The DNA's letters: not shown here
Content: a report on this DNA, generated by a model with database tools, continued
Assembly (NCBI GenBank): GCA_029552065.1
Contig: JAKPEG010000068.1
Location: forward strand, 3,033 to 67,032
From: Actinomycetes bacterium
Lineage (GTDB): Bacteria; Actinomycetota; Actinomycetes; Actinomycetales; Dermatophilaceae
Length of the DNA stretch: 64,000 nucleotides
Reading direction: 5' to 3'

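Follow-up and report, generated by a model that had tools for sequence, protein, structure and literature searches.

The octamer GTATGCCG occurs 67 times in the window, against about 1-3.4 copies expected from shuffles and low-order Markov models, and its 58 coding copies compare with 3.5 ± 1.7 under a codon resampling that keeps both the proteins and the codon usage. The sequence-only reading had proposed scoring the word against a maximal-order Markov model; this was run, but orders 4-6 reproduce the count only through sub-words that are themselves nearly all copies of the word, and the nulls used instead are the shuffles, the low-order models and the protein-preserving codon resampling. In samples of 20-64 kb per genome, taken from two genomic regions, the word is hyperabundant, its density of about 1 copy per kb greatly exceeding what composition and codons would give. 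It is also sharply defined: copies with one mismatch, leaving out the codon-preferred C-form GTACGCCG, exceed background by just ~8-26% of the number of perfect copies, and the flanks are at background, with no signal past one base. In the window, 87% of the copies are intragenic, with fewer of them in the final fifth of a gene. Non-coding DNA carries 1.52 copies per kb as against 0.71 in coding DNA (2.56 and 1.37 in a second data set), a roughly twofold excess for which there is no codon-based reason.

An artefactual origin, be it codon or dipeptide bias, a repeated peptide, a MITE/REP element or Illumina adapter contamination, could draw on the presence of GTATGCCG in the P7 adapter (...ATCTCGTATGCCGTCTTCTGCTTG) and on the two frames that dominate the coding copies. 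Its probability is negligible, and we regard it as refuted: the adapter extensions CGTATGCCGTCT, GTATGCCGTCTT and TCTCGTATGCCG each have 0 occurrences, codon resampling yields 3.5 copies where 58 are observed, every site recurs in seven independent assemblies that different assemblers produced, conserved genes of 23 further genomes contain in-frame copies, and the flanks are unconserved, unlike those of the true REP-like repeats in three of the compared loci of related genomes (L004, L019 and L055). The apparent hyperabundant octamers of these three loci are part of those longer repeats, and ACCGGGAT, which appeared as a hyperabundant octamer in the locus L058, stems from a tandem array in which a 15-bp unit is present in 44 copies. 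In Nocardioides, GTACGACG is moderately over-represented against an order-3 Markov model (z = 6-11), an excess taken to come from codon and dipeptide usage (Tyr-Asp).

The excess of GTATGCCG belongs to the lineage, not to the locus. Fifteen XPB-centred loci, from Lapillicoccus, Pedococcus, Arsenicicoccus, Segeticoccus, Intrasporangium, Knoellia, Terrabacter, Flexivirga and several MAGs, are word-rich, with 0.4-1.25 copies per kb, and the citrate synthase region, which is unrelated to the XPB region, holds 1.3-1.9 per kb in the 8 closest lineages (metagenomes). The density is 0-0.09 per kb in Austwickia, Kineosphaera, Piscicoccus, Kribbia, Phycicoccus sp. Soil748 and Terracoccus, word-poor lineages that are interspersed among the word-rich ones on the XPB tree (a tree of a single protein), and at most 0.12 per kb in about 50 further loci (Nocardioides, Cellulomonas and others). 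No substitute word appears in the at least six word-less lineages of the family. Where the word is present, it varies by lineage: among the compared loci, position 9 is T in L221 (20/30) and L222 (20/29) and C in L219 (26/29) and L223 (17/22), and position 6 is free, giving the form GTATGNCG, in Flexivirga and the locus L262 and partly so in L012, L231 and L261. Among non-coding copies, 21 of 42 have T directly after the word (p = 4e-8). The word is shared by the family, with dialects congruent with phylogeny as drawn from the single-protein tree and with some members lacking it. Seven contigs of the same species (99.6-99.9% identical) show no gain or loss of the word, their divergence being too small to show direction.

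By analogy with the DUS and USS of other bacteria, we suggest, at a probability of roughly 40%, that GTATGCCG, together with a weaker ninth base that is T or C by lineage, may be a lineage recognition word that serves as a signal for DNA uptake or transfer. What is favoured is the whole word, reached via different positions in each frame, and not one base. Tyr-Ala in a G...G context is written G|TAT-GCC|G at 106 of 122 sites, where word-poor genomes use TAC-GCC; Ala-Tyr is CG|GCA-TAC at 63 of 93 sites, with GCG-TAC in word-poor genomes; Gly-Met-Pro takes the form GGT-ATG-CCG in 19/24 cases, against 0/35 in word-poor genomes (Fisher 3e-11); and Arg-His-Thr is spelled CGG-CAT-AC(C/G). When position 1 is C in place of G, the Tyr codon is mostly back to TAC, a reversion that indicates dependence on the full word context. 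Protein composition shifts as well: the tripeptide Arg-His-Thr is about 3x commoner in word-rich proteomes, Gly-Met-Pro is 3.4x commoner in the densest loci, and Tyr-Ala is up 25% (2x in the G...G context); codon choice and some amino acids of ordinary housekeeping genes are measurably altered by the word. The sequence-only reading had pointed to alignments with orthologues from relatives lacking the word as a way of seeing whether its sites were created by substitution; in such alignments, word-poor genomes mostly differ from the word at 2-4 positions, amino-acid positions included.

This use of frames bears directly on a pure mutational hotspot, in which a methylated C at position 4 of GTACGCCG would deaminate to T and give GTATGCCG. 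Such a hotspot would agree with the commonness of GTACGCCG in word-poor relatives and its near absence here, and with the finding that 43 of the 58 coding copies are in two frames where C-to-T is synonymous. In the Gly-Met-Pro frame, however, position 4 is fixed by ATG and the word is made via GGT, that is, at position 2, and in the Arg-His-Thr frame it is made via CAT, at position 3; a signature of one modified base, left by deamination or VSP, does not explain the enrichment, with positions 2 and 3 driven in these frames. GTATGCCG, at 78-160 per 100 kb, is moreover 2-4x as dense as the C-precursor ever is in relatives, its enrichment is highest in non-coding DNA, a ninth-base preference and dialects are present, and the G-variant GTAGGCCG is untouched. 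We hold the hotspot to be most improbable and consider it refuted by the GGT and CAT usage.

The C-form itself is depleted. GTACGCCG ranks with the most frequent 8-mers of word-poor relatives (36-38 per 100 kb) and is nearly gone here: the window has 2 copies, and word-rich loci have 5.4 per 100 kb. The figures for the C-variant family GTACGNCG are 5.4 + 13.2 per 100 kb in word-rich genomes and 36-38 + 76-83 elsewhere, and the depletion covers N other than C, where the T-version does not accumulate. The ratio of CG|ACG-TAC to ACC-TAC is 3:21 in word-rich and 77:47 in other genomes (Fisher 8e-6), and Pro and Ser codons show the same type of depletion as this Thr case. The depletion of GTACGNCG is not accounted for by uptake drive, and it counts against the uptake reading.

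This specific purge of the GTACGNCG family from word-rich genomes speaks for methylation-linked repair or gene conversion, in which a methyltransferase would mark the site or its C-variant and repair favouring the marked strand would act as a ratchet towards GTATGCCG and away from GTACGNCG, with the T of position 4 permanently mimicking 5-methylcytosine. A methyl-directed ratchet is among the proposals for HIP1 that are cited in one study of that word (Elhai, cited in PMC5861425). The same explanation suits the roughly half of the copies that are a simple C-to-T change of GTACGCCG, and the GTACGCCG sites of word-poor genomes, 26% of which are GTATGCCG in word-rich orthologues, as against 28% conservation among word-poor genomes. 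We nevertheless judge it unlikely. Depending on the frame, transitions and transversions drive each of positions 1, 2, 3, 4, 7 and 8, and we know of no Vsr-type single-mismatch enzyme that drives multiple positions; the word exceeds its C-precursor in density; it is asymmetric; its dialects are single-position changes and not the wholesale specificity swaps of restriction-modification enzymes; and, to our knowledge, Actinobacteria are without MutS/MutL/MutH. Plain conversion of GTACGCCG to GTATGCCG as the whole story is rejected by the frame analysis and the 2-4-fold overshoot in abundance.

Two further readings were set aside. A 'funnel' of all GTAYGNCG words into GTATGCCG via amino-acid changes is not supported: the totals of that family are alike (104 vs 119-123 per 100 kb) and Tyr-Ala and Tyr-Asp frequencies move in the funnel's direction, but orthologous sites show the escape variants CTACGACG and GTAGGTCG and no conversion. 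General avoidance of GTAC, as an RsaI/PabI-type restriction site, was likewise rejected, the depletion outside the GTACGNCG family being mild (about 0.5-0.7) and varying among word-rich genomes. A two-level form of actinobacterial self-DNA recognition, in which a putative reader unrelated to ComP would favour GTATGCCG and the genome would be purged of the cytosine form GTACGNCG, is in our view quite unlikely. If it were true, the thymine at position 4 would be a hard-wired stand-in for 5-methylcytosine, self-recognition and discrimination against the DNA of related genera, which carry GTACGNCG at about 1 copy per kb, would be coupled in one specificity, and the word would be more than a new uptake sequence, marking a drive and barrier system of a new type that acts genome-wide.

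Between pairs of word-rich genomes, 47% of GTATGCCG sites are conserved, against 18% of any 8-mer in the same alignments (pairwise counts, and as such pseudo-replicated). Positional conservation does not discriminate, being equally expected under ordinary selection on the sites, as has been argued for HIP1 (PMC5861425). A chromosomal protein, abundant and sequence-specific, either of the nucleoid or a non-polar cofactor of recombination or repair, might bind the word, which ordinary selection would then retain in the manner of HIP1. This explanation gains from the conservation of orthologous sites above that of ordinary 8-mers, from the favouring of the whole word, from the enrichment of non-coding DNA and from a family specificity with variants that resembles HIP1 (PMC5861425). 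We regard it as rather unlikely, since in each genome thousands of sites, all of tiny effect, would have to outweigh rare-codon and amino-acid costs one by one; the spacing over 64 kb is random (exponential, CV 0.91), with nothing regular or periodic, and the at least six family lineages without the word or a replacement fit a dispensable system better than chromosome architecture. According to a recent report, HIP1 makes transformation and recombination more efficient, in dependence on methylation (bioRxiv 10.1101/2024.09.10.611283), so that a binding site and a transfer signal need not exclude each other.

The sequence-only reading had seen no obvious strand skew and had argued against a polar motif, and the pooled loci confirm the lack of polarity. 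Copies on the G-rich and C-rich strands stand at 103:106 (37:30 in the window alone, where the GC skew is positive throughout), sense and antisense copies at 116:89 (p = 0.07), and there is no co-orientation with the leading strand. Close pairs show no excess in total (30 vs 29 expected) and are skewed in orientation only, inverted pairs outnumbering direct ones 22:8 (p = 0.016), and several of the pairs can form long hairpins 3' of genes. A scan of viral contigs for inverted pairs gave at least 120 chance matches, and a word-dense virus is absent among the matches listed. A polar chromosome signal, either a Chi-like recombination hotspot or a KOPS/AIMS-like segregation guide, would likewise be an over-represented asymmetric octamer, as Chi and KOPS are, but it is extremely improbable for a word that has no strand bias relative to GC skew and is 4-5x as dense as Chi in E. 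coli.

The lack of polarity also weighs against a dsDNA pump of the FtsK/SpoIIIE/TraB type that would load at the word in actinomycete-style conjugation and bias transfer on the donor side, with the word as a chromosome-wide counterpart of the 8-bp TraB recognition sequences found on Streptomyces plasmids. The format of an asymmetric 8-mer, with an internal free position in some lineages (GTATGNCG), is one that the gamma domains of such pumps read, as in KOPS (GGGNAGGG), SRS and TRS; the co-evolution of KOPS and FtsK is reportedly the subject of one study (PMC3384302). The population-level drive would be the same as under uptake bias, so that all the pattern evidence for uptake applies to it too. 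We consider such loading very unlikely: chromosomal KOPS and SRS are strongly polar, in contrast to the 103:106 of GTATGCCG, traB-like or other conjugation genes were not seen in the fetched DNA, and TraB recognition sequences are clustered in the clt locus and not dispersed at one per kb.

To return to the uptake or transfer signal, a putative reader, envisaged as a sequence-specific dsDNA-binding component inherited in the Dermatophilaceae/Intrasporangiaceae, would read the word in either orientation, and word-bearing fragments would be favoured for uptake, other transfer or recombination between cells of the lineage. With word-bearing DNA so favoured, any allele chancing to carry the word would be over-transmitted, and the word would build up wherever protein coding permits and be retained at orthologous sites. 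Word and reader would drift jointly into dialects, and in lineages losing the system the word would decay to the codon-preferred GTACGCCG. We infer that a reader protein exists, that the step concerned is DNA uptake or transfer, and that the advantage lies in biased transmission (drive) and not in organismal selection.

Only housekeeping genes occur in the 64-kb window and in the fetched loci, with no competence, pilus, DNA methyltransferase or nuclease candidates, and pilin genes were not found in the fetched loci. A HelD/HelR-like gene beside XPB was considered as a candidate, with orthologues only in some word-rich loci, but synteny breaks void the pattern. In the open-access literature we found no report of natural transformation in this family and, in keeping with the earlier statement that no equivalent is described in Actinobacteria, no paper linking the word to that phylum; searches for the word string were swamped by adapter and primer matches. 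Micrococcus luteus, which belongs to the Micrococcales, the same order as this family, is naturally transformable. Its flp pili, which are among the filaments covered in a review of DNA uptake by type IV filaments (PMC6370729), may offer, by analogy, a precedent within the order for DNA uptake.

Hyperabundant orientation-neutral words are known from few lineages (DUS, USS and HIP1), and each has been informative on how genomes are shaped by DNA exchange or by an unknown chromosome process. The host family here is high-G+C and Gram-positive and counts bacteria that are abundant in soil and wastewater among its members, and no such signal has apparently been described there. With word-rich, word-poor and dialect-bearing close relatives available, the responsible gene should be findable by phylogenetic profiling, and the cultured strains of Knoellia, Terrabacter, Arsenicicoccus, Pedococcus and Flexivirga make the hypothesis testable in culture (GTATGACG is named, beside GTACGCCG and scrambled words, as a non-word comparison sequence). 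Should the word prove to signal uptake or transfer, Actinobacteria would join the groups in which gene exchange involves sequence-specific self-recognition, and transformation of these organisms would gain a practical handle; should it not, it would be the second unexplained hyperabundant octamer after HIP1, with a much better comparative set.

Among the known systems, REP/MITE elements differ from the word, as no sequence is conserved past the core of GTATGCCG and 87% of its copies are intragenic. Chi (RecBCD/AddAB) and KOPS/AIMS (FtsK) share with it the over-represented asymmetric 8-mer, but GTATGCCG has no replication co-orientation (103:106) and is several-fold denser than Chi. Dcm/Vsr very-short-patch repair in E. 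coli likewise involves a pair of C and T words of which one is enriched and the other depleted; here, however, the direction is opposite, with enrichment of the T-form, the effect is of far greater size and all positions are driven. The cyanobacterial HIP1 (GCGATCGC) is an octamer that is 15- to 300-fold over-represented, up to one copy per 350 nt, lies inside and between genes, has lineage variants and sites conserved beyond codon conservation, and has no settled function after decades (PMC5861425). The present word resembles it in being a hyperabundant octamer in and between genes, with lineage variants and with site conservation above the alignment background. HIP1 is a palindrome with known methylation sites, unlike the asymmetric GTATGCCG, whose reverse complement CGGCATAC differs, and it shows a 10-90 kb periodicity, with periods of a size beyond the reach of a 64-kb window.

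The USS of Pasteurellaceae occur at about 1 copy per kb, are orientation-neutral, use frames encoding common peptides and have a measurable proteome effect; they come in two family-level types and are explained by molecular drive from uptake bias. Preferential uptake and genomic over-representation are at least among the USS properties treated by Bakkali (2007, PMC1939737). Density, orientation neutrality, common-peptide frames and proteome effect are all shared by GTATGCCG. USS differ in having a 9-bp core with AT-rich flanking segments, as against flanks that are signal-free past one base in a host of 72% G+C, and one-mismatch copies are much rarer for GTATGCCG, which with a one-mismatch excess of only ~8-26% of perfect copies is sharper than either DUS or USS.

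The DUS of Neisseriaceae, whose reader is the minor pilin ComP, belong to another phylum; in a Gram-positive envelope, a ComP and type IV pilus of the neisserial type are not expected, and the word has 8-9 bp in place of 10-12 bp. We know of no DUS counterpart to the GTACGNCG purge of word-rich genomes. GTATGCCG followed by T shares 7 bases, ATGCCGT, with the 12-mer AT-DUS, ATGCCGTCTGAA; the overlap is treated as a coincidence, and the bases beyond it do not continue the match. The word does not join the DUS series, since the invariant CTG core (PMC3630211) and the A at +10 are absent and the downstream bases have no CTGAA-like preference. DUS occur at 1-2.5 copies per kb in eight dialects that are congruent with phylogeny; some family members lack the signal, and one-mismatch copies are few (PMC3630211). 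They resemble GTATGCCG in many features: both are asymmetric words of similar density in both orientations, found in genes where the frame tolerates them and more densely between genes, with some inverted pairs that may form hairpins, and both are family-wide, with dialects 1-2 bases apart that track phylogeny, members without the word and few one-mismatch copies.

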